Assembly: GCA_020059745.1 (NCBI GenBank) | Contig: JAGVBK010000002.1 | Location: 104,301-168,300, forward strand | Source: Candidatus Shapirobacteria bacterium | GTDB lineage: Bacteria > Patescibacteriota > Microgenomatia > UM-FILTER-40-11 | Direction of reading: 5' to 3' | DNA length: 64,000 bases | Shown here: positions 2,947 to 62,170 of the stretch, in pieces | Layout: each line of letters starts with the position of its first letter | How positions within the stretch are numbered: position 1 is the first letter of the stretch | The notes under the pieces: generated by a model | Seen by the model: the letters and a program-made list of their open reading frames with translations, nothing else | Told to the model about the DNA's origin: nothing | Database searches by the model: none | Made by a program: the position numbers and the translations under genes

Positions 2947-5900
2947 TTAGTATACCCTAATTTTTTCCTGATTCAAAGCAACAATCGCGCTTATGGTTGC
3001 GAGCAGCAAGGTAAAACCAAAATATTGAAGATACTGGGGGATGAAAATCAGAACTACTCTGCTCTCGTTTTCCGAGCCAGGCAACACCCAACCGTTTTCC
3101 CAATTATTGACAAGAACATGATCATTAATCTCCCGGCCAACTAAAGGCAGTAGAAAAGCGGGTCTTTTAATTAAGCTTTCTCCTTCGAAGTAAGCTTTCC
3201 AGCCTTCATGATAAGACTGGGATAAGACAAGAAGGCTTTCCTGCCGTGGGGGGACATCGATTTTATAAAGGCTGGGGTTGGGGTGAGAACTTTCCGCCTT
3301 CATGTATTTAATTGGAGCCAAAGAAACATCTTTTTGGAAACGAATTCCAGAAAGAAAGTAGTATGGAATTGGGTTGATAGTAATCATCCCCAAATCATTG
3401 ACAGATTCATGCCTGCCAATAGAGATATTGTCAAAATGGAGCCGGTAGCCAATGCCTGATTTCTGCATCGGTGGTTGGATAATGAACTTCTCTCCTCCTT
3501 CTTTTTGAAGATAAAATTCCTGGTCTGCCCTTCTTGCACTTTGATTTTCCAGCCAAAAAAGCAGGCTTTTGCCTTTGACATTTTCATTCTCAACTTTAAT
3601 AAGATAGCCGAATTTATGAAGCAAATTCTCAAAACTAAAAGTGGCTGAGCAGTTGGTGGAATTAACGGCGCTAAGCCTTAGAAAGTTATTCCCCTGTTTA
3701 TTTGCAATTTCATTTTTGACTGTACCGAAACTGAATTGATTGCAGTTTTTAGCTTCTAAGCCTCCGGCAGTCGGATTAACTTCACCGCTGAAATAGCCCC
3801 CAACCTTAGGAACAATCACCTCGATATTCCTTCCCTGAACATTTACCTTTGGAATAAGATACTTAACATCGCTAAAGTCCCCGGGGTTTACCCAAATGAG
3901 TTCTCTGCCGTCAAAATCTGGAAGCCTTAGTTCATATGACAAAACCTCTTGAGGCACTTCCTTTGAAAAAATAAAGCTGTCTTTTGTTTCCTTAATATTA
4001 AAATCAAAACCTTCTGTCCCCCTGCCGGTAAAAATGGAACGGAACGGATAGTAGTAGTCCGCTTCTTTTTGCTCTGAATATATCCCCAAATCCAAAAAAG
4101 CCCGGTCATAACTTCCCCACCTGTAAGAAGAAGCCACTTTGGCAGTATCGGTAGAAATAAAGACATAATTTTCTATTGGATAGTCCAGATTAACTTTATA
4201 AAGCAGGATATTGCCAAAAGTTTTTTCAAGGCTGAATTTTGGCGAAGAAAACATCTCTTCAAGCTCGTCAAAACCCAGAGCTTTATAGTTGCCGGTATTG
4301 TAAATGTTTTTATCGACAAGCGCGTATTCTATTTGGTACTTATCAAATATCTTTTCAAATATTTCATTTTTCCTTGAAAAAAGAGCATACGACATTTCCC
4401 AGTAATAGTTCTCGTTTTGGCTGCTCCACATGTCAAAATTACGGTCTAGAATCGGCTGGTTAATACCATACCAAATAAAACCCGAGCCGGTATAATTCCA
4501 ACGGTAAAGACTCCAACCCCAAAAACTTGATTGGGGAAAATCGGCAATTCTCCCGTCTTTACCGCTTTTTTTAAGATAAGAAAAAAGCTCAAAATAGTTT
4601 TCGGGAATGCGGGCTTTTACCCTTGGGTAAAATAATTTACCCTGAAAAACCGGATACAAATAAAACACGGGCAAAAAAGCCAAAAGGACAATGATTAAGA
4701 GGCTCTTTTTTGAGTTTGCCTTTGAACTTAACCAAAAACAAAATGCACCAAAATACAAAGAAAGGCAAAAAGCAAGCAAAGCGGAAAACTTAGTAAAAGG
4801 AAATCTGAACATCTGAGAAAATAGCGGAAGCTTAAAGAAAGCTTTTGACAAAAGCGAAATAACCGGTGTTTCGTTGGCTAAAACTAAAAAAGACAAGAAG
4901 AAAACCGGCAAAAAAGAGATTAATTTTTTAAATTTTAAAAATGAAATTAAAGCGCCTGCCGTTCCTAAGAAAAAAAGCAAAAACCCAAAGAAAGAAATCA
5001 CCGGATTTTCGAGGTGTCCTGTCCAAGGCGCCATTAGATAATTCACTGTTCCGTTCTCACTTGTTTCCGTGGTATCAAACCAAAAACCTTTAAGAAGAAC
5101 GACATTTTTTAGATCCCCGTATTTTTTGTTTTTAAGTAAGTTGTCTTCGGTTGTCATCTGGCTAATTTTTGACTGGACCGTGATATTAACATCCGAAAAG
5201 ACAAAATAAAGATTTGGCAAAAGCCAAAAAGCGTTAGTGATAAAAATAAAAGCAAAAGAAAGCAAAACCCTCTTAAGACTGCCTTTGTTTTGCAAAAGAT
5301 AAACAAAAGAAGCCAAACCCCAAGCCATTAAATAGACCGCAAAAAAGGTGCCTACATATCCCTGTGGCACAGCCAGCAAATTCACCAAAAGAAGAAAAAT
5401 AAGGCTCTTTTTATCCCTTTTCTCCAGGAAATTAAGATTAACTAAAAACAACCAGGGCAAAGAAGCAAAGTGGTGAGAAAAAGCTTCAAAAGGAACATAA
5501 AAAAGCTGAATTGTGGCCAGGTTAAAAAGATAAAAGACAGAGCCGGCCAGAGCGGAAAGTTTTTTCTTACCTTTTCCTGCCAAGAGAAAAGAAAGTAAAA
5601 AGTAAATCCCCAAAGACCCCAGGTAAAGCATTAGAAAGTGGTAAAAATATCTGAGAAACGAACTTGGGAGAAACAAAGAAAAAATCCATAAAATTAGCTG
5701 CCTTGGCAAGTCTGCGGCATGGCCCATGCCACCCATTAAACCCAAGCCCTGATACTCCTGCCAGGAAGCAAAAAATGATCTTTTAAGATTAAGGCCAAAA
5801 TCAAACTCAGGATGAAGGTTATCCCAACCTGAAAGCCATGTTCCGGCATGAGAATTTGCAATGCTTATAGCCAAAAAGACGGCAGTTAAAATCAGCACCG

Positions 5901-5949
5901 GCCAAATGTCAATTACTTTAAGGAAAAATTGTTTAAAAAAGTTTTTCAT
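2947..5949 (-). CDS. Large polytopic membrane protein, GT-C-fold glycosyltransferase-like
   Basis: 1000 aa. The N-terminal half has many hydrophobic helices with an early GWDNLHPEFDF loop. The C-terminal roughly 450 aa is soluble. It neighbours GT1 and GT2 genes. The family assignment (AftD/DUF3367- or YfhO-like) is inference only. Confidence 0.45.
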   Translation of the reverse strand: MKNFFKQFFLKVIDIWPVLILTAVFLAISIANSHAGTWLSGWDNLHPEFDFGLNLKRSFFASWQEYQGLGLMGGMGHAADLPRQLILWIFSLFLPSSFLRYFYHFLMLYLGSLGIYFLLSFLLAGKGKKKLSALAGSVFYLFNLATIQLFYVPFEAFSHHFASLPWLFLVNLNFLEKRDKKSLIFLLLVNLLAVPQGYVGTFFAVYLMAWGLASFVYLLQNKGSLKRVLLSFAFIFITNAFWLLPNLYFVFSDVNITVQSKISQMTTEDNLLKNKKYGDLKNVVLLKGFWFDTTETSENGTVNYLMAPWTGHLENPVISFFGFLLFFLGTAGALISFLKFKKLISFLPVFFLSFLVLANETPVISLLSKAFFKLPLFSQMFRFPFTKFSALLAFCLSLYFGAFCFWLSSKANSKKSLLIIVLLAFLPVFYLYPVFQGKLFYPRVKARIPENYFELFSYLKKSGKDGRIADFPQSSFWGWSLYRWNYTGSGFIWYGINQPILDRNFDMWSSQNENYYWEMSYALFSRKNEIFEKIFDKYQIEYALVDKNIYNTGNYKALGFDELEEMFSSPKFSLEKTFGNILLYKVNLDYPIENYVFISTDTAKVASSYRWGSYDRAFLDLGIYSEQKEADYYYPFRSIFTGRGTEGFDFNIKETKDSFIFSKEVPQEVLSYELRLPDFDGRELIWVNPGDFSDVKYLIPKVNVQGRNIEVIVPKVGGYFSGEVNPTAGGLEAKNCNQFSFGTVKNEIANKQGNNFLRLSAVNSTNCSATFSFENLLHKFGYLIKVENENVKGKSLLFWLENQSARRADQEFYLQKEGGEKFIIQPPMQKSGIGYRLHFDNISIGRHESVNDLGMITINPIPYYFLSGIRFQKDVSLAPIKYMKAESSHPNPSLYKIDVPPRQESLLVLSQSYHEGWKAYFEGESLIKRPAFLLPLVGREINDHVLVNNWENGWVLPGSENESRVVLIFIPQYLQYFGFTLLLATISAIVALNQEKIRVY

Positions 5950-5959
5950 TTTGTTTAAC

Positions 5960-7240
5960 TTATCCGTTTAACAAATAAGCGTATTTTTCTCCGATTGCCG
6001 ACCAGCTTCTTTTTTCAGACATGATCTTGGAAAACTTTTTCATTTTCCCCTGCAAAACCTTGCTTTCCGACACTTCTTTTAATTTTTTAAACAAATCTTT
6101 TGAATCAAGACTAAAAATAATCTCTTCCATTTTAAGATTACTTTTTTCTAATGCCTCTTTTATGTCCAAAGAAAGGCAGTAAGCGCTTAAAGGCTCAGAA
6201 AACAAAACCGGCTTTTTATAGGAAAAGGCAATGGACAGTGGTCCGCTGCTGCTGACAAATATCCGGTAAGGAAGTATTACTACATCACTTAAGCTAAAAA
6301 AGTCGTTTATATTTTCTTCATTAATAAAGCCGGTTATTTCGATGTTTTTACCTGCTTTTTTAGCGCATTTGTAAATAGCGGCAATGAATTTTTTATAAAC
6401 CCTATCCTCTTCATGAGTTTTTGCCGGACCGCCGGCCATTATGAGTTTGATGTTTGTTTTTTTGTTCTTTGAAAAATAATGGCTTAAGGTTTTAACCAAC
6501 CAGTCCGAACCCTTATACCAAGTCAAAAAACCAAAACAAAGAACCACAAAATCACTCTCTTTAATTCTCATTTCTTTAAGTTTCACTCTTGAAAGAGCTT
6601 CTTTTCTTTTGGAAGTTCTTCCGTTTGGCTCAACTCCTAATGAAATAGTAACCACCTTTGAGCGGTCAGAGGTAAACTGAAGAGCATGGTTCCTTAGTAT
6701 TTCTTCAAAAGCCACTGTTTTATGACTTAGGTTAACTCCAAGAAAGTAAAGTGTTTTTAAAGCCAAGGTGTATGCTTTCGCCCGAAAACTGTCTTTTTTA
6801 ATTCCCAATTGTTCCACTGCTAAATTGGCATCAGTTAAAATGCCGTGAGAAACAAAATAAACTTTTTTTTGCATGAGCCTTAAAAATAAAAGCAGTGCCG
6901 GAACGCCGGCAAGAAGATAGCGTTTATTGCCGAATATCGCCCATTCAAAAGCAAAAAACACTTTTAAACAGTTTCTCTCCTTTAGTATCTCCCGCACAAT
7001 CTGCAAAAAAAGCTTTGGCTTGTTTCTATCCCAAACTCTTTTTACCTTGATTTTGTCTTCAAAGTATTCTTCTTTACCACCGTCAAGCTTGTCCGCCAAA
7101 ACCACAAACTTTAGTTTTTTCTCTTTTTCCATGCTGGAGAGCAGGGTTTTTTTGGAATAAGGAGCAACTGCCGAATAAGGGTGGTTGTGTAAACTTCCTT
7201 TAGGAGGATAAGTGGTAATAACTAGAATTTTTTCTTTCAT
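5960..7240 (-). CDS. Glycosyltransferase, GT1/GT4-like
   Basis: 426 aa with Rossmann-like halves. The C-terminal half shows GFINEE...SDVVILPY...SSGPL, resembling the GT-B retaining glycosyltransferase signature. Confidence 0.65.
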   Translation of the reverse strand: MKEKILVITTYPPKGSLHNHPYSAVAPYSKKTLLSSMEKEKKLKFVVLADKLDGGKEEYFEDKIKVKRVWDRNKPKLFLQIVREILKERNCLKVFFAFEWAIFGNKRYLLAGVPALLLFLRLMQKKVYFVSHGILTDANLAVEQLGIKKDSFRAKAYTLALKTLYFLGVNLSHKTVAFEEILRNHALQFTSDRSKVVTISLGVEPNGRTSKRKEALSRVKLKEMRIKESDFVVLCFGFLTWYKGSDWLVKTLSHYFSKNKKTNIKLIMAGGPAKTHEEDRVYKKFIAAIYKCAKKAGKNIEITGFINEENINDFFSLSDVVILPYRIFVSSSGPLSIAFSYKKPVLFSEPLSAYCLSLDIKEALEKSNLKMEEIIFSLDSKDLFKKLKEVSESKVLQGKMKKFSKIMSEKRSWSAIGEKYAYLLNG

Positions 7241-7255: not shown

Positions 7256-8062
7256 TTAATATTCGAAAACTTTTTTAAAAGAAGAAACCACTACCTTTCT
7301 GAATTGTGGCCTTATCTGATAAATATTCTTTAGATCATTAACTTTAATGGCAAACATTTCTTTGAAAGCTCTCAAAATATCCCTTACCAGGTTAACTTTA
7401 CTTGACTTACTTATATGTTTCCAAGTAACAGGCAGCTCGACAATTCTGTAATTAAGCTTGTTGCTGACATAAATTACTTCCGGATCCAGCCCCCATCTTT
7501 CTTGAGTCAATCTGGGAAAAACATCGCGACAGACTTGGTAAGAAAAAACCTTAAAGCCGCCGGTAAAATCAGCAATTTTAATTCCTAAAACAGTTTGGAG
7601 AATTTTACTGTGAACCGTGCCGATTATTTCCCTAACCATACTTCTTTTAACCAAGGAAATAGTTTGGGGAAGCTTTTTGCTGCCTACTAAAACTTCATAA
7701 CCTTTATGCATAAAGAGAGAAAATTCTTTAAGGTTTTCAAGAGGAATTGACATGTCGCCGTCTAAAAACATGCCAAAATCAGTATTTACCTCTTTTACTC
7801 CCTGCATGACCGCATATCCCCGGCCTTTGTTTAAGGGATAGGAAATAAGGAAAATTTCCGTTTGGTCAATAATATTTCCGGAGTACTGTCTTTGGAAATT
7901 TTTCAGTAAAGAAAGAGTTTTGTCTTTACTGCCGTCATCAACAAAAATAAGTTTTTCAATCTTAATGCTTTTTGGGCTTTTGTAATTGACAAGATAACCC
8001 AAAGTTTTTTTAAGCCTTTTTTCTTCATTATAGAGAGGGACAATGACAGTTAATGTTTTCAT
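7256..8062 (-). CDS. GT2 glycosyltransferase (polyprenol-phosphate sugar transferase-like)
   Basis: 268 aa. Contains VIVPLYNEE, VDDGSKDKT and a DGD motif, typical of dolichyl/undecaprenyl-phosphate glycosyltransferases. Confidence 0.8.
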   Translation of the reverse strand: MKTLTVIVPLYNEEKRLKKTLGYLVNYKSPKSIKIEKLIFVDDGSKDKTLSLLKNFQRQYSGNIIDQTEIFLISYPLNKGRGYAVMQGVKEVNTDFGMFLDGDMSIPLENLKEFSLFMHKGYEVLVGSKKLPQTISLVKRSMVREIIGTVHSKILQTVLGIKIADFTGGFKVFSYQVCRDVFPRLTQERWGLDPEVIYVSNKLNYRIVELPVTWKHISKSSKVNLVRDILRAFKEMFAIKVNDLKNIYQIRPQFRKVVVSSFKKVFEY

Positions 8063-8063
8063 C

Positions 8064-8279
8064 TTAAAACCCCTTTTCTTTCATGCACCTTTGGTATGAG
8101 TCCCAATCAGGGACACGGGCGCTGCTGCCGCCCTCAGGGTTCTCATAAGTATTGACGCCCACTGTCATACACCCCTGAACAGCATTGTTTTTTATCATTC
8201 TTTCCGATTGCCTGTATCCCAAAACCACCGCTCCAATAAGGGCGGCGCCGATTAAGATAGTTCCGATATCTTTTCTCAT
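8064..8279 (-). CDS. Small single-pass membrane protein, unknown function
   Basis: The internal Met (MRKDIGTILIGAALIGAVVLGY...) gives a 71-aa protein with one TM helix and two Cys. The longer 94-aa version has an unlikely N-terminus. Confidence 0.45.
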   Translation of the reverse strand: MRKDIGTILIGAALIGAVVLGYRQSERMIKNNAVQGCMTVGVNTYENPEGGSSARVPDWDSYQRCMKEKGF

Positions 8280-8403
8280 TTTTTCACCGATAAAAGCATA
8301 AAATAAATTTTTATACTTTAGTCGATGCGTAACCCGAAGAGTGTTCATTTACCTTATGAAGGTAAACTACTAACCCTCCGGGTTACGCGATCGGCATGCA
8401 ATG

Positions 8404-9549
8404 CTACTTGACAAGTCCCAGATACTGCTCCCGCCAGAATGTGGCTGCAATAGCCATTCCTTCCCACCCTACGGGAATTCTGGCTTTGGGATAGCTTGGG
8501 ATCAATATCAAGTTTGGGTCGGTCGGCACCTCCAGACGCTCTCCGTCGAACGGAAATTCGAACGGATTCCTGATGAAAAACGCGTCTTGGGGAGGTGCCT
8601 GCCAGTTGCCGTTGCCCAGATCGACGAGCCTGACACTCGGTGCAAGGCCGAATGTTGAGCGGATCCACGCTTCGTTCACCTGTGAAGGCGAAAAAGCGGG
8701 GGTCGCACTGGGAACGACGGGCGTTGGGGCAGCTAGCGGAACTGGTGTCTGAGTTGGCACAACTTGGGCTACCAAAGTAGCTGTCGGCTGTACCAAACTT
8801 GAGACCTGACCGATTTGACCAACTGAGGTCACAGGGATCACGCCAGTGATCCTGTGATACTCGTCAATACTGAAAGGCCTGAACGTGATCCCCTGTACAG
8901 GACCACACCAACCAGCAGGAATTCCTGACCCAACTGCTTCTGGGGGAAAACCCTCTTCTAGGGTCCTCCCGTGCAACTCCCGCTGTCTGCGGTCCGCCAT
9001 CCAGCCATCTTGCCGGAAAGGAGTGAAGTTACAAACCTCAATGGAAACAATATTCCCAAAGAGGTCTTTCTCCTCCGGCACCTTCCAGCTCCATGGCTCA
9101 CCCCTAGCCCTGCTAACCTCGCTGGGCTCAATGGACGGCTGAGCCTGTCTCCTTGTTGCAAGGATAACAAACTCATCCACTGACCTTGGCCAATCCTCCA
9201 TGACCTCAAGGCCTAGAACCCTGATGTCGTCCAGAGTCTGACCGCCAGTCAGAGTAAGCCCGAAAGCCTGAACCCTAGGTGACGGTGCCATTGCAACCGT
9301 CGGTTCGGATTGAACAGCCTCCTGACCGGGAGTCGGAGTCACAAGGACCTCAACAACCCGAGTCACTTCGACCGGAACCTCCTTCTCGACAACGACGGTC
9401 TCCTTGACCACCTGAGGGACGACCCTGGTGACCTCGACCGGGACCGTCTCCTTGACGATCTCGGGCGTTGGTGTCAGAGCACTTTCCCTGAGCGCACAAC
9501 CCGTGATCATCACGATAGCCACCATTACAACCAGGAATATCATCTTCAT
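8404..9549 (-). CDS. Lipoprotein, unknown function (GC-rich island)
   Basis: 381 aa. It has a signal peptide with lipobox MITGC and an AGGAGG-type SD upstream. An N-terminal tandem KETV.VEVTRVV repeat and Pro/Thr linkers are present. I recognised no family. Confidence 0.6.
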   Translation of the reverse strand: MKMIFLVVMVAIVMITGCALRESALTPTPEIVKETVPVEVTRVVPQVVKETVVVEKEVPVEVTRVVEVLVTPTPGQEAVQSEPTVAMAPSPRVQAFGLTLTGGQTLDDIRVLGLEVMEDWPRSVDEFVILATRRQAQPSIEPSEVSRARGEPWSWKVPEEKDLFGNIVSIEVCNFTPFRQDGWMADRRQRELHGRTLEEGFPPEAVGSGIPAGWCGPVQGITFRPFSIDEYHRITGVIPVTSVGQIGQVSSLVQPTATLVAQVVPTQTPVPLAAPTPVVPSATPAFSPSQVNEAWIRSTFGLAPSVRLVDLGNGNWQAPPQDAFFIRNPFEFPFDGERLEVPTDPNLILIPSYPKARIPVGWEGMAIAATFWREQYLGLVK

Positions 9550-9559
9550 CTCAACCCTC

Positions 9560-10072
9560 CTAATCCCTCTGATGTCTCCGAAGAAACCCTGGAATGTCCA
9601 ACTCCGAACCGGGCGGATCCAGAGGATTTTCAGGCGTCTGCCTTTCCTCTTTCATCTCCGCCGCCCTGAAATTCAACCGTTCCAATTCCTCGATAAGCTC
9701 CTCCCTTTTCTCGTTCAGCTTCTTGATCTCATTTCTCGCCTGCTCGAGTTGAACTCTTTTTTCGCCAACGACACTAGTCAACTCTGCCACAGTCTTCTGT
9801 AGTTCGAGAACTTCTCCGTACAACTCATTTTTTCGACGCTGGCCTTCCTCAATCTTCTCGTCTGTTGTTGAGGCAACTTCCTCTTTCCTCCCTCTCACGT
9901 TCAAGATTATGGAAAGAACGAAAAGCAAAACCCCAACGACCAGGAGAATCCAGACCCAAGGCTCAAAAATCGCGAAAAAGTCGACGAGGACAAGCCCAAC
10001 AACAATATTTACCAGGCTCACCCCCAAAAACACAGTACCAACAATAAGTAAGACCAACACCAGGCGCTTCAT
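9560..10072 (-). CDS. Membrane-anchored coiled-coil protein (GC-rich island)
   Basis: The start is taken at MKRLVLVLLIVG, which has an AGGAGA SD 7 nt upstream. There are two or three TM helices, then a heptad-like Glu/Lys-rich segment (LQKTVAELTSVVGEKRVQLEQARNEIKKLNEKREELIEELERL). Confidence 0.55.
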   Translation of the reverse strand: MKRLVLVLLIVGTVFLGVSLVNIVVGLVLVDFFAIFEPWVWILLVVGVLLFVLSIILNVRGRKEEVASTTDEKIEEGQRRKNELYGEVLELQKTVAELTSVVGEKRVQLEQARNEIKKLNEKREELIEELERLNFRAAEMKEERQTPENPLDPPGSELDIPGFLRRHQRD

Positions 10073-10285
10073 GTCTTCTTCTCCTTTGCATGCCGATGTC
10101 AAAGAACTACTTTTGGCTCCTTCCAAGAACCGCAATTGGTCCTCTTTCTGGGCCAAAAGACCGATTTTTCAAAATCGGAATAATACCCACTATTAATGAA
10201 CATCTTTCCGACTTCAAAAGACAACCAGCCGGAGAGAGAAAGATACGCTTGCGCGTAAACAAACTCTCTCCGGCGAGATGCCATC

Positions 10286-11068
10286 CTACTCGAACCAAAC
10301 CACTGCGGTCCAGACCTTAACGTGCCCCGGCCCCTTGAATTTGTCTAGGTTTTCCCCAAGAATTGGGTTCCACCCGGTGACCAAGGCATTCTCGGGCACA
10401 GCGAGCATGACAGGGTTTCCACCACTGTTATAGTCAAAGCTGCACCCATCCTTCCGAAGGGCCCAGACACCACCAGTGACAACATTGGCTTGAAGCCAAT
10501 CGATGCTTGGGCAACCCTCGGGTTGGTCCGGAATCGGGAGCCTCGGCAAAGGCGGATTGAACACCACTGGGAGAAACAAAATACTTTCTCCAGGTGTCGG
10601 AACCACCGTTGGCTCGGCGGTTGCCATTGCAGTTGGTTCCGGCGTGGCGGTCGGCGTTGCCGTTACAGTTGGTACTGTAACCGTTGGCTCGGCCGTTGCC
10701 GTGGCGCTCTGTGGCTCAATCCACAGAACCCCGTCCCAAAATTCTCCCGAACCAGGTCCTTCCACCAGAAGGTCTTTTTGGCCCTCCGGCTCCGGCCGCG
10801 GATCCCAACCAGTCATCTTGGATCCACCCGCGGGGACAACGAGCAAGATCGGCTCCTCAAACGGGCCTCTTCCGCTCTCGAAAACAAAATCACAACCTTC
10901 GTCGGGCCCGACTTTCCACATCGAGAGTTCACCCCCGATGTTTTCCGCGACCCACTCGAGATCCGGGCACTCTTGCGGGGGTTCCGGAATGGCAACCTCC
11001 GCTGAGAGCTGGAACGGCAAAACTGCCGCCAGCGCGACCACAACCGCGAGTACAAGACTGCGCTTCAT
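10286..11068 (-). CDS. Secreted protein with internally duplicated 2-Cys domain (GC-rich island)
   Basis: The start is taken at MKRSLVLAVVVALAAV (signal peptide), with an AGGAGGGG SD. Two homologous ~85-aa domains (CPDLEW...GCDF...TGWDP and CPSIDW...GCSF...TGWNP) are joined by a Thr/Pro/Ala linker. Confidence 0.6.
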   Translation of the reverse strand: MKRSLVLAVVVALAAVLPFQLSAEVAIPEPPQECPDLEWVAENIGGELSMWKVGPDEGCDFVFESGRGPFEEPILLVVPAGGSKMTGWDPRPEPEGQKDLLVEGPGSGEFWDGVLWIEPQSATATAEPTVTVPTVTATPTATPEPTAMATAEPTVVPTPGESILFLPVVFNPPLPRLPIPDQPEGCPSIDWLQANVVTGGVWALRKDGCSFDYNSGGNPVMLAVPENALVTGWNPILGENLDKFKGPGHVKVWTAVVWFE

Positions 11069-11216
11069 TTCCCCTCCTGGGATCATAAGGATGGCAAATA
11101 CTCAATGTGCTTCTGGTCTCACCAGCCAGATTGGCGCTTACGCCTTTCTAGTTATTGAAACCAGAAAAGGAAATTGAACTCCTAGTTTCCTTTCCCGGCT
11201 TCAACCGGAAACTTCT

Positions 11217-11849
11217 TTATTTTTTAAGACGAAGCAGCATGTATCCGGCAAGACCGGCAATTGAGGTTAAAGGGGCAACGAAAAGCAAACTAGAACCTGT
11301 GGCAGGAGTTTCACCTAAAACTTTTTTAACTTTGGTAACACAAACTTTAGAAGTGTCTTCTCTTTCTTCACCGCCGAATTTAGCCCTGACAGTGTTTTTG
11401 ACATCACAGTCAAAATCTTTATCACTCGGAGTGGAAACAACAACTGTTTCAATCTGTTTCTCTTCTGATTCGCCAGGTCCTAAATCTAAAATATCAAAAG
11501 TAAGGCTTCCTGACTCAAGCTTTAACTCAGCCGGAAGAAAGTCTGTAACAGTCACTTTTTCAAAAGTGCTGTTGCTGTTGTTAATGATTTTTATTCTGAA
11601 AATAACTTTTTCGCCAATGCTGAATTTATAGCCTTCAGGAGTAATGTCGGCTAAATTGTCTTCGAACCTTTTGTCAATCGGGCTCCAAACCTTTTTATCT
11701 AAAACAAGCTCTTCAACTTCGGTACAGACTTCGCCGCCGCCGTATAAAGATTCGCAACGGATTGCTCCAAAAGCATTTTTAGGAGAAATAATAAAAGCCG
11801 CAATAAATAAAATTGCGGTTAACAAAGCATGTTTCCTGTCCATTTTCAT
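11217..11849 (-). CDS. Surface protein with DUF11-like repeat domain and C-terminal sorting signal
   Basis: It has a signal peptide and a V.F.I...N.....F..V.V.D.LP..L core shared with the 12846-13490 protein. The C-terminus reads GETPATG, then a hydrophobic helix and an RLKK tail, a variant of LPXTG. Confidence 0.65.
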   Translation of the reverse strand: MKMDRKHALLTAILFIAAFIISPKNAFGAIRCESLYGGGEVCTEVEELVLDKKVWSPIDKRFEDNLADITPEGYKFSIGEKVIFRIKIINNSNSTFEKVTVTDFLPAELKLESGSLTFDILDLGPGESEEKQIETVVVSTPSDKDFDCDVKNTVRAKFGGEEREDTSKVCVTKVKKVLGETPATGSSLLFVAPLTSIAGLAGYMLLRLKK

Positions 11850-11974
11850 TTTTATTAAGGCTAAATAATAAAGACATGGCGTATTATAGGGCATGTTTAT
11901 TGCTTTGTCAACTGCCGATTTCTTGATTTTAGTAAACTTTTAAGAGATAATATCGCCGTTTACTAGAGGATATT

Positions 11975-12730
11975 ATGGAAATAATTCTTTTTGATTCATC
12001 CTGGGAAAAGGAAAAAATAATACCGGTTGATATTCCGGTTCCTAAACCTGTGGAACCAAAAATTTCTTCTTCTTTCCCTTTCGCAAAATTTGCCAGAGGC
12101 CTTGCTTTGGGCTTAATCGGCATTTCTCTTTTTGTTTTTGGCGCAGCAGTTTTGCCAATAATCAAGCTGGAATTAAGCTACCGCCTTAATCCTAAAAATG
12201 AAGCTGAAGCAAGAGAATACTTTCCCAAAACTCCAAGTTATGAGGTTGCCTTAGAAAACAAAAAGCAGCTTGCCTCACAAGAAGCAGCCAAATACGGGGT
12301 TGATACAGATTTTTCTCTGGTCATCCCTAAAATTTCTGCTACCTCAAAAATCATTGCCAATGTGGACCCGGCAGACGAAAATAAATACAAAGCTGCTCTT
12401 AAAAATGGAGTTGCCCACGCCAGCGGCACCAAATTCCCTGGCAGCAAAGGCACTATTTATCTTTTTGCCCATTCCACCAACACTTTAGTTAATGTTTCCC
12501 GCTACAATGCTGTCTTTTATCTAGTTAAAGAGCTGGAACCCGGAGACCAGGTTATCATCTTTTTTGCCGGTCTAAAATATTCGTACCGGGTAACCGAAAA
12601 GGTCATCACTACTCCAGAAGATTTATCTTTGATAAAAGACAACCAATCAACTGAAAAGCTAATTCTTCAAACCTGTTGGCCGCCGGGAACAACCTTAAAA
12701 CGGCTCATGGTTGTAGCAGAAAGAATTTAA
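11975..12730 (+). CDS. Sortase-family transpeptidase (copy 1)
   Basis: 251 aa with an N-terminal TM helix. Contains IYLFAHST (catalytic His region) and LILQTCWPPGT (TLxTC-like Cys motif). Confidence 0.8.
   Translation: MEIILFDSSWEKEKIIPVDIPVPKPVEPKISSSFPFAKFARGLALGLIGISLFVFGAAVLPIIKLELSYRLNPKNEAEAREYFPKTPSYEVALENKKQLASQEAAKYGVDTDFSLVIPKISATSKIIANVDPADENKYKAALKNGVAHASGTKFPGSKGTIYLFAHSTNTLVNVSRYNAVFYLVKELEPGDQVIIFFAGLKYSYRVTEKVITTPEDLSLIKDNQSTEKLILQTCWPPGTTLKRLMVVAERI
12281..12392 (+). repeat. Near-identical 112-nt tract shared by the two sortase paralogs (copy 1)
   Basis: Differs at only 2 positions from 13871-13982, while the flanking coding sequence is clearly diverged. Shorter identical blocks lie at 12449-12482 = 14039-14072 and 12653-12687 = 14243-14277. 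Confidence 0.9.
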
Positions 12731-40766: not shown

Positions 40767-41055
40767 TGCTGCTCCCCATGGCCGGAAATTAAGGTTTTTC
40801 CCTCTATGTCGCAGCATTTAATTGCTTGATTTTTGTGCCTGGGTAGGCTAGACTTTAAATAGTCCTGCCAGCAAGGCAAAGGTTTTGAAAACGCTTTTCT
40901 CTACAATTTCAATGCGTAAGGGAAAGCGAAGTTCTAAAAGAGCGTGCTTTTTTAGACAGCTTACCCACCTGGTTTTCCAGGGAAATGCGCTCAAAACCAC
41001 CTATATTGGCGGGACTTTCCACATCCAAAACCACTCTTTTCCACCCACAAAACCA

Positions 41056-41103: not shown

Positions 41104-41355
41104 GCCGAAGTAACTCAGCGGCCCGCCCGCCACGCAAGCCAGCTTGCTGGTGTTGCGGGCAGGTAGAGCAAATGTTTTGCCTACCCGCAGTGCTACAGCG
41201 TTGCAGGCGGGCCTGCCCACAGAAGCCTAGCCCTTCTAGCTCAACGGCAGAGCGACGGTTTTGTAAACCGTTGATCAGGGTTCAATTCCCTGGAAGGGCT
41301 CCAGTTTAGGTAGGCGGGTAAACATAGGTCGTCAGTTCAATCCTGACCGTCGGCT
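41104..41355 (+). other. Interrupted tRNA-Thr(UGU)-like gene enclosing an intact tRNA-Thr
   Basis: The 5' part (41104-41179) supplies the acceptor, D-arm and anticodon-stem 5' strand. The 3' part (41318-41355) supplies the anticodon-stem 3' strand, variable loop, T-arm GUCAG-UUCAAUC-CUGAC and acceptor. The acceptor pairs 6/7. There is a 42-nt GC-rich hairpin in the D-loop. See findings. Confidence 0.55.
41230..41303 (+). tRNA. tRNA-Thr (anticodon UGU)
   Basis: Manual cloverleaf: acceptor GCCCUUC/GAAGGGC, D-stem GCUC/GAGC, anticodon arm ACGGU-UUUGUAA-ACCGU, T-arm CAGGG-UUCAAUU-CCCUG, with an encoded CCA. Confidence 0.85.
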
Positions 41356-61999: not shown

Positions 62000-62084
62000 G
62001 CGAGCGTAGTTCACCCGCCTGCAAAAGCTGACGCTTTAGCGTCTGCGGGCAGGTCGGTAGAATGCACGGTTCAGCCTGCCCGCC
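62000..62084 (+). other. tRNA 5'-half-like leader with GC-rich D-loop hairpin
   Basis: GCGAGCG-UA-GUUC-A[40-nt hairpin 62014-62053]UCGGUA-GAAU-G-CACGG-UUC..., then GCCUGCCCGCC. The D-arm is near-identical to that of the downstream tRNA-Pro. No matching 3' half lies nearby. Confidence 0.5.
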
Positions 62085-62095
62085 AACAACAACGC

Positions 62096-62170
62096 CGGAA
62101 TGTAGTTCATCGGTAGAACGCTCGGTTCGGGACCGAGAGGTAGAGGGTTCAATTCCCTCCATTCCGACCA
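62096..62170 (+). tRNA. tRNA-Pro (anticodon CGG)
   Basis: Acceptor CGGAAUG/CAUUCCG, D-arm GUUC-AUCGGUA-GAAC, anticodon arm CUCGG-UUCGGGA-CCGAG, T-arm GAGGG-UUCAAUU-CCCUC, with an encoded ACCA. Confidence 0.85.

Follow-up and report, generated by a model that had tools for sequence, protein, structure and literature searches.

A REP/MITE-like palindromic repeat linked to tRNA gene replacement in Patescibacteria

Rickettsia palindromic elements (RPEs) and mitochondrial GC clusters are tolerated within genes that stay functional. In the tiny genomes of Patescibacteria, each tRNA species is encoded by roughly one gene, and disruption of a tRNA gene should therefore be lethal. Group I introns are known at position 35/36 of tRNA genes in this phylum (PMC13011429). 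In Caldiarchaeum, 5′ tRNA fragments are followed, beyond a recombinase element, by an intact tRNA of like type; for tRNA-Thr, the recombinase-bearing element that separates the parts is at least 1.8 kb long and the intact gene combines host and element halves (PMC3293823). A further kind of system is provided by REPs, one end of which is marked by a conserved tetranucleotide, GTAG or CGTC (PMC3733652).

The two loci described here, which lie in a 64-kb window (the whole stretch of DNA that was analysed), share traits with each of these systems. As with RPEs and with mitochondrial GC clusters and double-hairpin elements, GC-rich palindromes have invaded genes of AT-rich reduced genomes, including those for structural RNAs; here, however, the invaded tRNA gene is dead and the element brings a replacement gene. 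The likeness to group I introns lies in the phylum and, at locus 1, in the part of the anticodon loop that is interrupted (35/36), whereas the insert lacks a ribozyme core, comprises 139 nt including a 74-nt tRNA, and sits in a gene that decays unspliced. Unlike in archaeal split or multi-intron tRNAs, the 3′ half is missing (locus 2, L141 and L208) or the halves are defective (locus 1). As in Caldiarchaeum tRNA-Thr (PMC3293823), a 5′ fragment precedes an intact tRNA of the same identity, but the insert measures only about 110–140 nt, contains no enzyme gene and holds a complete tRNA bounded by palindrome arms. A literature search on the arm sequences and on nested or replacement tRNA genes returned nothing that describes such an arrangement.

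Two interrupted tRNA genes and their uninterrupted relatives

Two GC-rich hairpins with common ends had been pointed out in a preliminary description of this DNA, and their sequences are as it reported (Table 1). The shared arms read CCCGCCYGC...TGCGGGCAGG, and the likeness is confined to them, the two interiors being unrelated. The pattern CCCGCCYGC-N15-35-GCGGGCAGG matched twice in the 64 kb, at the two hairpins, compared to 0.00 matches expected from shuffles, and the window has just three instances of the exact 9-mer GCGGGCAGG or of its complement, at 41155, 62045 and 62075. Hairpin 1 folds as ((.((((((...)))))).)), including a C.A mismatch typical of the repeat family to which it belongs. 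Both loci were recovered at 99.8–100% identity in independent assemblies from other samples, and hairpin 2 is identical in the independent assemblies L238 and L239. No Rfam family covered the hairpins, either at gathering thresholds (window and 16 loci) or at E ≤ 5 (both window loci); the sole extra Rfam match was to 6S RNA, upstream.

Table 1. Features of the two loci (window coordinates)
Feature	Position	Strand	Description
Old tRNA-Thr(UGU), positions 1–19	41104..41121	+	Acceptor 5′ strand, D stem 5′ strand, start of D loop
Hairpin 1	41122-41163	+	42 nt, CCCGCCCGCC...TGCGGGCAGG; GC-rich imperfect palindrome in X..Y′ orientation, in D loop of old tRNA-Thr
Old tRNA-Thr, positions 20–35	41164..41179	+	D stem 3′ strand, anticodon stem 5′ strand, loop to G35
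Second palindrome copy, inverted (Y..X′)	41180..41211	+	CCTACCCGCAGTGCTACAGCGTTGCAGGCGGG, 32 nt
Left arm of tRNA-carrying copy and 9-nt spacer	41212..41229	+	Arm CCTGCCCAC at 41212-41220
Replacement tRNA-Thr(UGU), intact	41230..41303	+	In apex of inverted palindrome; ARAGORN, Rfam (69 bits)
6-nt spacer and right arm of tRNA-carrying copy	41304..41318	+	Arm GTAGGCGGG at 41310-41318, as read from the sequence
Old tRNA-Thr(UGU) 3′ half, positions 36–73	41319..41355	+	Decaying; joins with the 5′ pieces into an ARAGORN tRNA-Thr(tgt)
Old tRNA-Pro, 5′ piece	62000..62013	+	Acceptor 5′ strand, D stem 5′ strand, A14; promoter common with L230
Hairpin 2 (twin of hairpin 1)	62014-62053	+	40 nt, CCCGCCTGC...TGCGGGCAGG; X..Y′, in D loop of old tRNA-Pro
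Old tRNA-Pro, further piece	62054..62074	+	Rest of D loop, D stem 3′ strand, anticodon stem 5′ strand, loop TTCAG
Inverted copy, left arm and spacer	62075..62095	+	CCTGCCCGCC; without right arm and without old 3′ half
Replacement tRNA-Pro(CGG), intact	62096..62170	+	ARAGORN, Rfam (68 bits)

The D-loop location proposed for both hairpins holds, as judged by comparison with the tRNAs of relatives and, at locus 1, by ARAGORN on the joined flanks; what had been described as tRNA-like halves are the original genes. At locus 1, a tRNA-Thr(UGU) was called once 41122-41163 and 41180-41318 had been excised and the flanks joined, and the joined halves align with the uninterrupted orthologous tRNA of L234, L007 and L009. 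The first 15 nt of the 5′-most piece are the same as in the L234 gene; this piece is colinear with L007 and L009 and has the same promoter upstream. In the piece that follows hairpin 1, 13 of 16 nt are as in L234, and the strand that it contributes to the anticodon stem finds its partner in the old 3′ half, at 41322-41325. Compared with the L234 tRNA, the joined old halves are identical in 61 of 76 alignment columns, the replacement tRNA-Thr in 49 of 75. Two defects mark the old gene, an A6.G67 mismatch and the loss of a nucleotide from the anticodon stem that leaves 4 bp, at positions where L234 pairs perfectly.

L234 is the closest relative at this locus (the neighbouring VanW protein is 79% identical), and its uninterrupted tRNA-Thr(UGU) is preceded by the same 6S RNA and promoter as in the window; L007 and L009 are alike in this. 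The filled type (window strain, L006 and L239) and the empty type (L234) are both present in one sample, 3300037067. Hairpin 1 is missing from the orthologous site in L234 as well as in L007 and L009. Since the L234 site lacks the hairpin, the hairpin is an insertion and not a conserved structure. Comparison of the junctions with the empty sites revealed no clear target-site duplication and leaves room for 1 nt at most, an ambiguous G. The VanW protein of a further relative, L235, is 81% identical to that of the window, and the L235 sequence ends short of the tRNA-Thr locus.

At locus 2, the old gene is recognisable from its 5′ part, which matches the D arm and anticodon stem of a relative's tRNA-Pro(CGG): the D arm of the first piece is of the type found in L236 tRNA-Pro(CGG), and the second piece reads TCGGTAGAATGCACGGTTCAG against TCAGTAGAACGCACGGTTCGG in L236. 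The 3′ half is absent. The orthologous locus of L230 retains both arms as well as the old tRNA-Pro 3′ half, and its joined halves were called as tRNA-Pro(cgg) by ARAGORN. The flank downstream of the replacement tRNA-Pro is conserved in L229, L233 and L230. The contigs of the relatives L229 and L233 begin within the tRNA-Pro gene.

Replacement tRNAs nested between palindrome arms

The arms that bound the replacement tRNA-Thr pair with each other, with the G.U wobble and C.A mismatch of the family, and L009 and L230 are arranged likewise. A search for a Y arm and an X′ arm 75–125 nt apart and enclosing a tRNA, which recovered the window case through L003 (99.96% identical), yielded tRNAs nested in this way in three independent places, each time with the anticodon of the host gene. 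The insertion points differ: 35/36 for Thr(UGU) in the window, 36/37 for Pro(CGG) in L230, and the D stem for Thr(GGU) in L009. The L009 nested tRNA lies inside a still pristine old gene without an additional hairpin, and all its differences from the host are compensated pairs of the acceptor and T stems, which makes it a functional relative rather than a decayed duplicate.

We propose, with a probability of about 0.72, that each hairpin is a copy of a dispersed palindrome lying in a dead old tRNA gene, which was replaced by a tRNA of the same anticodon inside an inverted copy. The original tRNA-Thr(UGU) and tRNA-Pro(CGG) genes would have been knocked out by an inverted copy (CCTRCCCRC...GYAGGCGGG) with the replacement tRNA in its apex. 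An intact tRNA with the same anticodon renders the old gene dispensable, and a solo copy (hairpins 1 and 2) would later have landed 16–21 nt upstream, in the opposite orientation, in the 5′ remnant. The order from cassette to solo hairpin is based on one young case, L009. The old gene is in decay, with two defects at locus 1 and the 3′ half lost at locus 2. The new tRNA is probably transcribed from the old promoter, and the remnant and hairpins would form a structured leader of 96–126 nt to be removed by RNase P. Pairing of the arms around the new tRNA may insulate the replacement from the similar old sequence. Mobility presumably occurs at the DNA level and is enzyme-driven.

In one small clade, three tRNA genes have been broken up, each being replaced on the spot by a copy of the same anticodon that lies between palindrome arms. 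The match between the anticodons of cargo and host could reflect survival instead of targeting, because other insertions would be lethal. More tentatively, and at less than even odds in our judgement, an enzyme-less cassette made of two arms and a tRNA gene may spread in Patescibacteria via resident tRNA genes of the same anticodon, as an “addictive” selfish tRNA gene. Such a cassette would destroy and replace the resident gene in one step and use its victim's promoter, and solo copies would then colonise the wreck; if this is true, the one-step destruction and replacement means that the cassette cannot be lost afterwards. A mobile unit of this kind would make a selfish element indispensable in a new way and would open a route for horizontal turnover of tRNA genes. 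Since tRNA scanners see the nested gene and miss the surrounding wreck, tRNA orthology is easily misread in these genomes.

A dispersed palindrome family and its mobility

The motif is not limited to the two places in the window: 79 distinct copies of the same hairpin type, 24–57 nt long, occur across many genomes, on low-GC contigs of many phyla. The family arms are CCCGCCYGC(C) and (G)GCGGGCAGG, and nearly all 79 hairpins share a basal stem of roughly 10 bp in which a C.A mismatch is fixed, whereas the apex varies, although the uniformity of the arms is partly circular, the hairpins having been chosen by an exact arm pattern. A three-block pattern of the family matched low-GC genomes of Ignavibacteria, Bacteroidetes, Desulfobacteraceae, Verrucomicrobia, Kiritimatiellia, Methylomirabilota and four Patescibacteria. 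Six loci were found in the Ignavibacteria MAG X2_MaxBin.003, one to two in each of the Desulfobacteraceae CSMAG MAGs, and two in the 64-kb window of the present genome. The reverse complement of the second, inverted copy at locus 1 is CCCGCCTGCAACGCTGTAGCACTGCGGGTAGG, which fits the subfamily CCCGCCTGCAACGC..AGCATTGCGGGCAGG of L173, L133, L163, L141 and L208. The conservation across phyla of the 10-bp arm and its fixed mismatch points to some recognising protein.

The idea of a mobile hairpin that targets tRNA loops was right as to mobility, given the empty sites in relatives and the 79 copies, and partly right as to the target. In Patescibacteria-like contigs the copies do lie within tRNA sequence, but their insertion points vary (10/11, 14/15, 19/20, 21/22, 35/36 and 36/37), the invaded sequences are dead 5′ remnants beside an intact replacement tRNA, and the copies of other phyla form ordinary intergenic clusters. 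In L141/L184 (Gln) and L208 (Glu), hairpin pairs flank 12–13 nt of 5′ tRNA remnant upstream of the intact tRNA. Viral contigs were searched in three ways: the two-block palindrome pattern, which is too unspecific, hit chance hairpins in GC-rich phages only; the nested tRNA-Thr sequence gave no match; and a Y arm and an X′ arm separated by 80–110 nt revealed no tRNA cassette.

The repeat resembles REPs, BIMEs and REPINs in being a short GC-rich imperfect palindrome (24–57 nt) present in many copies across genomes, in having inverted neighbours a few to a few tens of nucleotides apart that can pair with each other, and in forming clusters between genes with no evident target-site duplication. 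The window hairpins of 42, 40 and 32 nt are about the size of a REP (~20–40 nt). Unlike REPs, the family has no consistent tag (8 GTAG and 6 CGTC, i.e. 14 of 130 copies, within 14 nt of the arm and at varying distances), and no cognate RAYT was found in the window or at the Patescibacteria loci. It also departs from REPs in that one arm sequence is common to several phyla, that the Patescibacteria copies lie inside tRNA remnants, and that one orientation holds a whole tRNA gene in its apex; to our knowledge, a REP with an entire tRNA gene in the apex has never been reported. Searching with Y1_Tnp proteins by tblastn detected no Y1 transposase homologue in the window or at the Patescibacteria loci. 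Y1_Tnp genes lie 1–1.4 kb from repeat copies in L139, L167 and L194; that of L167, the only RAYT whose flanks were examined, is bordered by a different REP, GTAGGACAGGCG.... When the proteins encoded nearby were clustered, just two-component systems and a weak Y1_Tnp signal emerged, and no transposase or recombinase could be linked to the repeat. With regard to MITEs, the arms constitute inverted repeats, and any duplication at the junctions would be of 1 nt (G) at most. We class the hairpin repeat as a REP/MITE-like element linked to tRNA gene replacement.

A rather unlikely alternative, which concerns only the mechanism of mobility, is that a site-specific recombinase uses the arms as its sites on a folded strand, in the manner of integron attC cassettes or pdif modules, so that the tRNA would be an exchanged cassette and not cargo of a REP/RAYT-type or MITE-type transposition. 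At three loci the cargo lies exactly between the arms of a split palindrome, and imperfect inverted repeats with a fixed unpaired base around a promoterless cargo that needs an outside promoter are also what integron cassettes offer, the fixed mismatched base being reminiscent of attC extrahelical bases. The hairpin clusters of L207 separate small toxin-antitoxin genes on the same strand in the fashion of a cassette array, a tyrosine recombinase gene lies ~430 nt from the hairpin cluster of L163, and some elements in Ignavibacteria and Bacteroidetes MAGs end in ATCTAAC...GTTAGAT, which we take to fit the attC R″/R′ consensus. However, of 179 X′ arms only 7 have GTTRRRY after them, each in an Ignavibacteria or Bacteroidetes MAG (two FCB-group MAGs) and none in Patescibacteria; the box is absent from the copies of the window, L009, L230, L141, L208, L154 and L163, so that Patescibacteria copies, unlike attC, have no R″/R′ boxes. 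Moreover, no integrase adjoins either window locus among the flanking genes, the insertion points in the old tRNAs are not at a pre-existing palindrome, and, unlike in integrons, the cargo is a tRNA and the target its cognate tRNA gene, not attI or attC.

Pairing between neighbouring copies and other readings of the loci

The preliminary description had noted that the 3′ arm of each hairpin is complementary to a downstream segment, and had offered a conserved structural switch as one explanation. These complements exist, 62075-62083 being a perfect 9-bp complement of 62045-62053 and 41212-41220 pairing at 8 of 9 positions with the 3′ arm of hairpin 1, but a closer partner was missed. Also matching at 8 of 9 positions, 41180-41188 (CCTACCCGC) is the real counterpart of 41155-41163, and the two are paired in the minimum-free-energy fold of locus 1. 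The hairpins belong to inverted doublets, 41122-41163 with 41180-41211 across a 16-nt spacer and 62014-62053 with 62075-62084 across a 21-nt spacer, and the nested fold of the locus-1 doublet is favoured. The “alternative partner” is the arm of the adjacent inverted copy, in an arrangement that resembles a REP doublet (REPIN). A competing helix arises because two inverted imperfect palindromes 16–21 nt apart either self-fold or pair mutually; being expected from the doublet, it is no sign of a switch.

A functional pre-tRNA leader, in which a switch between the hairpin and the long-range helix governs maturation of the downstream tRNA, is accordingly improbable. Both leaders do have a conserved promoter on one side and an intact tRNA on the other, the locus-1 region outdoes its shuffled versions in folding (z = −3.9), and the locus-2 conformers are nearly isoenergetic (−31.9 vs −34.3 kcal/mol). 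At locus 1, though, the conformers lie ~10 kcal/mol apart, so that this leader is not poised. The orthologous leaders of L234, the closest relative, and of L007 and L009 have no switch element, the hairpin interiors are mutually unrelated, no Rfam family matches the leader element, and in other phyla the same arms are found in hundreds of contexts that involve no tRNA.

We give still less credence to the view that the 5′ pieces are remains of an integrase-driven island that carried a partial tRNA, with the GC-rich sequences as decayed att sites. The Caldiarchaeum precedent is documented (PMC3293823), and in L230 the old tRNA-Pro has a large serine recombinase element integrated at its 3′ end. 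That element lies outside the nested cassette, however, no integrase is found between or beside the tRNA pieces of the window, the intact tRNA is complete and nested rather than a host/element hybrid, and the arms belong to a repeat family that is also found far from tRNA genes.

Least probable of all is that the inserts are introns of a working split tRNA whose halves are brought together by the arms, the nested tRNA being a second product: although joining the halves of locus 1, of L230 and of L009 yields recognisable tRNAs, and the GC-rich complementary arms around the interruption recall how leader and trailer pair in archaeal split tRNAs, there is no 3′ half whatever in locus 2, L141 and L208, the old halves of locus 1 are defective where L234 is not, an intact tRNA with the same anticodon is present, and the inserts are far below the size of group I introns and unmatched by RF00028 at both loci even at E ≤ 5. 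RF00028 does detect an intron in L163, so the test works.

Interrupted tRNA genes at the two loci

The window is a segment of a Patescibacteria chromosome, with a bacterial L10 leader and five tRNA genes, and the source labels of its protein homologues are likewise Patescibacteria. The two GC-rich hairpins (see table) have exactly the sequence given in the preliminary description and were the only matches in the window to CCCGCCYGC-N15-35-GCGGGCAGG (expected 0.00). Both loci recur at 99.8-100% identity in independent assemblies of other samples, which excludes an assembly artefact.

The gene order at locus 1 (def, fmt, L28, M50 peptidase, 6S RNA, tRNA-Thr(UGU), tRNA-Tyr, VanW, tRNA-Thr(GGU), L33) is common to relatives. 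In the closest of them, contig L234 (adjoining VanW protein 79% identical), an uninterrupted tRNA-Thr(UGU) (GCCGAAGTAACTCAGTGGTAGAG...CTTCGGCTCA) stands behind the same 6S RNA and promoter (GGTAAAATA); L007 and L009, which are more distant relatives, have this arrangement too. Two insertions break up the gene in the window, the 42-nt hairpin between G19 and U20 and 139 nt (41180-41318) between G35 and U36. The three joined pieces were recognised by ARAGORN as tRNA-Thr(tgt) and match the L234 tRNA in 61 of 76 alignment columns, compared to 49 of 75 for the intact tRNA-Thr(UGU) located within the second insert. The joined gene carries an A6.G67 mismatch and has lost one anticodon-stem nucleotide, where the pairing of L234 is perfect. 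The segments previously described as tRNA-like halves are the original tRNA genes, and the old tRNA-Thr(UGU) of the window is decaying.

The 6S RNA lies just 5′ of the old tRNA-Thr promoter; it scores 38.2 bits against RF00013 (E = 3e-6), short of the gathering score of 46.4. Two tandem 6S-like copies were seen by eye at the corresponding place in L007 and L009. The stem closing the 6S RNA of the window, CCUGCC/GGCGGG, has the same sequence as the outer 6 bp of inverted-type palindrome arms, which may be a coincidence. Elsewhere in the window, GC content reaches 0.47-0.52 at 8001-12000 compared to ~0.40 in the rest, and no Rfam family was reported from that region.

At locus 2, the D arm and anticodon stem of the 5′ piece (GCGAGCGTAGTTCA, hairpin, TCGGTAGAATGCACGGTTCAG) are those of tRNA-Pro(CGG) in contig L236. 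The piece sits behind a promoter that it shares with L230, the orthologue of this locus (DHH protein 83% identical); in the window, locus 2 has no 3′ half of the old tRNA-Pro. The tRNA of L229, whose DHH protein is 88% identical to that of the window, is free of insertions from the D loop to the 3′ end. Because the closer L229 lacks the insertion and both the window and the more distant L230 have one, the sequences speak for separate gains or a precise loss. The two alternating D-arm types of tRNA-Pro among relatives fit repeated replacement. Contigs of two close relatives (L229, 1-60, and L233, 1-65) begin partway through tRNA-Pro(CGG), in its D loop or D stem, which may reflect an assembly break caused by repeats or by duplicated 5′ pieces upstream. 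L230 also contains, outside its nested tRNA cassette, a ~3 kb element (2985-5965) inserted right at the 3′ end of the old tRNA-Pro (junctions ...CCCCGAC/TGAAAG on the left and ...AAATCT/CGACCAGCTC on the right), which encodes a large serine recombinase (Resolvase, Recombinase and Zn ribbon) and a 276-aa ORF.

A palindromic repeat family in several phyla

Scanning one genome per species for the three blocks CCCGCCYGC, GCGGGCAGG and CCTRCCCGC yielded 53 loci, about half of them chance matches in genes of high-GC actinomycetes. The others lie in low-GC genomes of Ignavibacteria, Bacteroidetes, Desulfobacteraceae, Verrucomicrobia, Kiritimatiellia, Methylomirabilota and four Patescibacteria; a metagenome scan added 45 loci. 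The low-GC loci share four blocks, X (CCCGCCTGCC), loop, Y′ (GGCGGGCAGG), spacer, Y (CCTGCCCGCC), loop and X′ (GGCAGGCGGG), often matching on both strands. Nearly all of the 79 distinct X..Y′ hairpins in low-GC contigs (24-57 nt) fold as ((.(((((((...))))))).)), with the same C.A mismatch at the third pair and a variable apex. The second insert of locus 1 opens with a family hairpin in reverse orientation. Read as its reverse complement, CCCGCCTGCAACGCTGTAGCACTGCGGGTAGG, this hairpin fits a subfamily, CCCGCCTGCAACGC..AGCATTGCGGGCAGG, present in Verrucomicrobia, Kiritimatiellia, Amesbacteria and two Patescibacteria-like contigs.

In contigs L141/L184 (tRNA-Gln) and L208 (tRNA-Glu, two tandem remnants), hairpin pairs flank 12-13 nt of a tRNA 5′ remnant, and an intact tRNA with nearly identical 5′ sequence lies downstream. 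The proposal that the element targets tRNA loops holds insofar as copies in Patescibacteria-like contigs do lie in tRNA sequence; their insertion positions vary, and the spacing of paired copies stays short (12-21 nt). We infer that new copies do not recognise a tRNA loop but land near a copy already present. In the second remnant of L208 (− strand, 240-165), the hairpins differ in sequence (CCTGCCTGTCGGCAGGCAGGG and CCACTCAGAGGGTGGTCCCTCTCTGAGGG) from the family hairpins of the first but occupy nearly the same two positions. In L146, from a Bacteroidetes MAG, a truncated tRNA-like pseudogene containing none of the family hairpins (− strand, 6715-6640; CGGGGAGTAGCCCCGCCCGGCTAGAGCG...GGTTCGAA) lies ~100 nt upstream of an intact tRNA-Pro(UGG).

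Locus 1 consists of the hairpin, 16 nt of tRNA and an inverted hairpin, and locus 2 of the hairpin, 21 nt of tRNA and the arm of an inverted copy, the same arrangement as in REP doublets (BIME/REPIN). Because each copy of such a doublet can fold on itself or pair with the other, the mutually exclusive helices proposed earlier are to be expected and are no sign of a switch. Self-folding and cross-pairing of the locus 2 leader gave -31.9 and -34.3 kcal/mol, and two separate hairpins and the nested form of the locus 1 leader -49.4 and -59.8 kcal/mol, respectively. The pairing with the downstream arm at 41212-41220 proposed earlier gave -50.6 kcal/mol; the minimum-free-energy fold uses the nearer 41180-41188, which had been overlooked.

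tRNA genes between the arms of the repeat

Since a Y arm, an intact tRNA and an X′ arm follow one another before the old tRNA-Thr(UGU) continues from 41319, the new tRNA lies in the apex of an inverted-type palindrome. Two further cases of this construction were found in the clade, in L230 (CCTGCCCGACTTTGCAATGA, tRNA-Pro(CGG), AAGTCATTGCAGGCGGG) and in L009 (CCTGCCCGCC, GTACTT, tRNA-Thr(GGU), TTAAGGCAA, GGCAGGCGGG).

Features of the window loci and host genes of the nested tRNAs
Locus	Feature	Position	Detail
Window locus 1	6S RNA (+)	40859-41019	
Window locus 1	Old tRNA-Thr(UGU), joined pieces	41104-41121, 41164-41179, 41319-41355	
Window locus 1	Hairpin	41122-41163	42 nt
Window locus 1	Inverted family hairpin	41180-41211	
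Window locus 1	Y-type arm CCTGCCCAC	41212-41220	Directly after 41211; 9-nt spacer follows
Window locus 1	Intact tRNA-Thr(UGU)	41230-41303	6-nt spacer follows
Window locus 1	X′-type arm GTAGGCGGG	41310-41318	
Window locus 2	Hairpin	62014-62053	
Window locus 1	Host: old tRNA-Thr(UGU), decaying	Cut 35/36	Extra 42-nt hairpin in remnant, D loop
L230	Host: old tRNA-Pro(CGG)	Cut 36/37	Different 41-nt hairpin in remnant, D loop
L009	Host: old tRNA-Thr(GGU), pristine	Cut in D stem, 23/24	No extra hairpin

Searching all collected loci for a Y arm, 75-125 nt and an X′ arm revealed a tRNA inside at these three only, and no such cassette was found in viral contigs. Cargo and host anticodons are identical in all three, which may reflect selection rather than targeting, because only same-anticodon insertions would survive where tRNA genes are single-copy. 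Between the nested tRNA of L009 and its host, the only differences are compensated pairs in the acceptor and T stems, so the nested gene is a working relative rather than a decayed duplicate.

The sequences show the insertions, the empty sites, the repeat family, the nested tRNAs of matching anticodon and the decay of the old gene. From these we propose that the cognate resident gene is first invaded by a tRNA cassette with palindrome arms, L009 representing the young state. Presumably lacking a promoter of its own (spacers of 6-12 nt), the cassette would be transcribed from the old one, and the remnant would become a 96-126-nt leader removed by RNase P. Solo palindrome copies, including the hairpins of both window loci, would then colonise the dispensable remnant, which would finally erode. 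In the window, locus 1 carries point defects, and locus 2 lacks the 3′ half and the right arm.

Alternative explanations and related elements

Empty sites in relatives and the widespread repeat family support a mobile hairpin. As a REP-like repeat lying in dead DNA, the hairpin is nothing out of the ordinary. Its context is unusual, in that tRNA genes have repeatedly been replaced in place by a tRNA borne between arms of the same repeat, and merits genome-wide follow-up. Our literature search found no paper describing palindrome-borne tRNA replacement; the nearest published analogues are REP families (PMC3733652), Caldiarchaeum tRNA fragments left by a recombinase element (PMC3293823) and Patescibacteria group I introns at position 35/36 (PMC13011429).

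The evidence does not establish a REP/RAYT system. Family copies seldom have GTAG/CGTC tags, neither the window nor the Patescibacteria loci yielded a Y1 transposase, and the REP adjoining the one RAYT examined with its flanks (L167) differs from the family studied. There, inverted GTAG-tagged REPs (GTAGGACAGGCG.CGCCTGTC; 55-85 and 530-553) flank an IS200-like Y1 transposase gene in the classic RAYT arrangement. An attC origin was rejected, as an R′ box follows 7 of 179 arms and none in Patescibacteria. Absence of the hairpin from the closest relative speaks against a conserved leader structure and leaves the structural-switch reading unsupported. A working split tRNA is contradicted by the missing 3′ half in three of five remnant-bearing loci, and a group I intron by the lack of an RF00028 signal at the loci, the same model detecting an intron in L163.

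That intron, from Candidatus Amesbacteria (1297-1506; 55.5 bits), lies ~580 nt upstream of a tRNA-Met gene. In L207 (1082-6288), palindrome clusters alternate with small same-strand genes (a HepT/MNT toxin-antitoxin pair, a DUF3473 gene and a MazF gene), a layout resembling an integron cassette array but without a visible integrase. In two FCB-group MAGs (Ignavibacteria and Bacteroidetes; L132, L136, L142, L146, L166 and L181), GAGCCNNATCTAAC or GTTAGANNNGGCTC bounds the four-block element on one side, which fits the attC R″/R′ consensus. Finally, in an IMG/VR contig of 53% GC (L242/L246, 1580-1760), inverted-type family hairpins occur within an ~85-nt tandem repeat unit (..CTCTGTG..CCTGCCCGC..GGCAGGCGGGTCTGTGGGC..).
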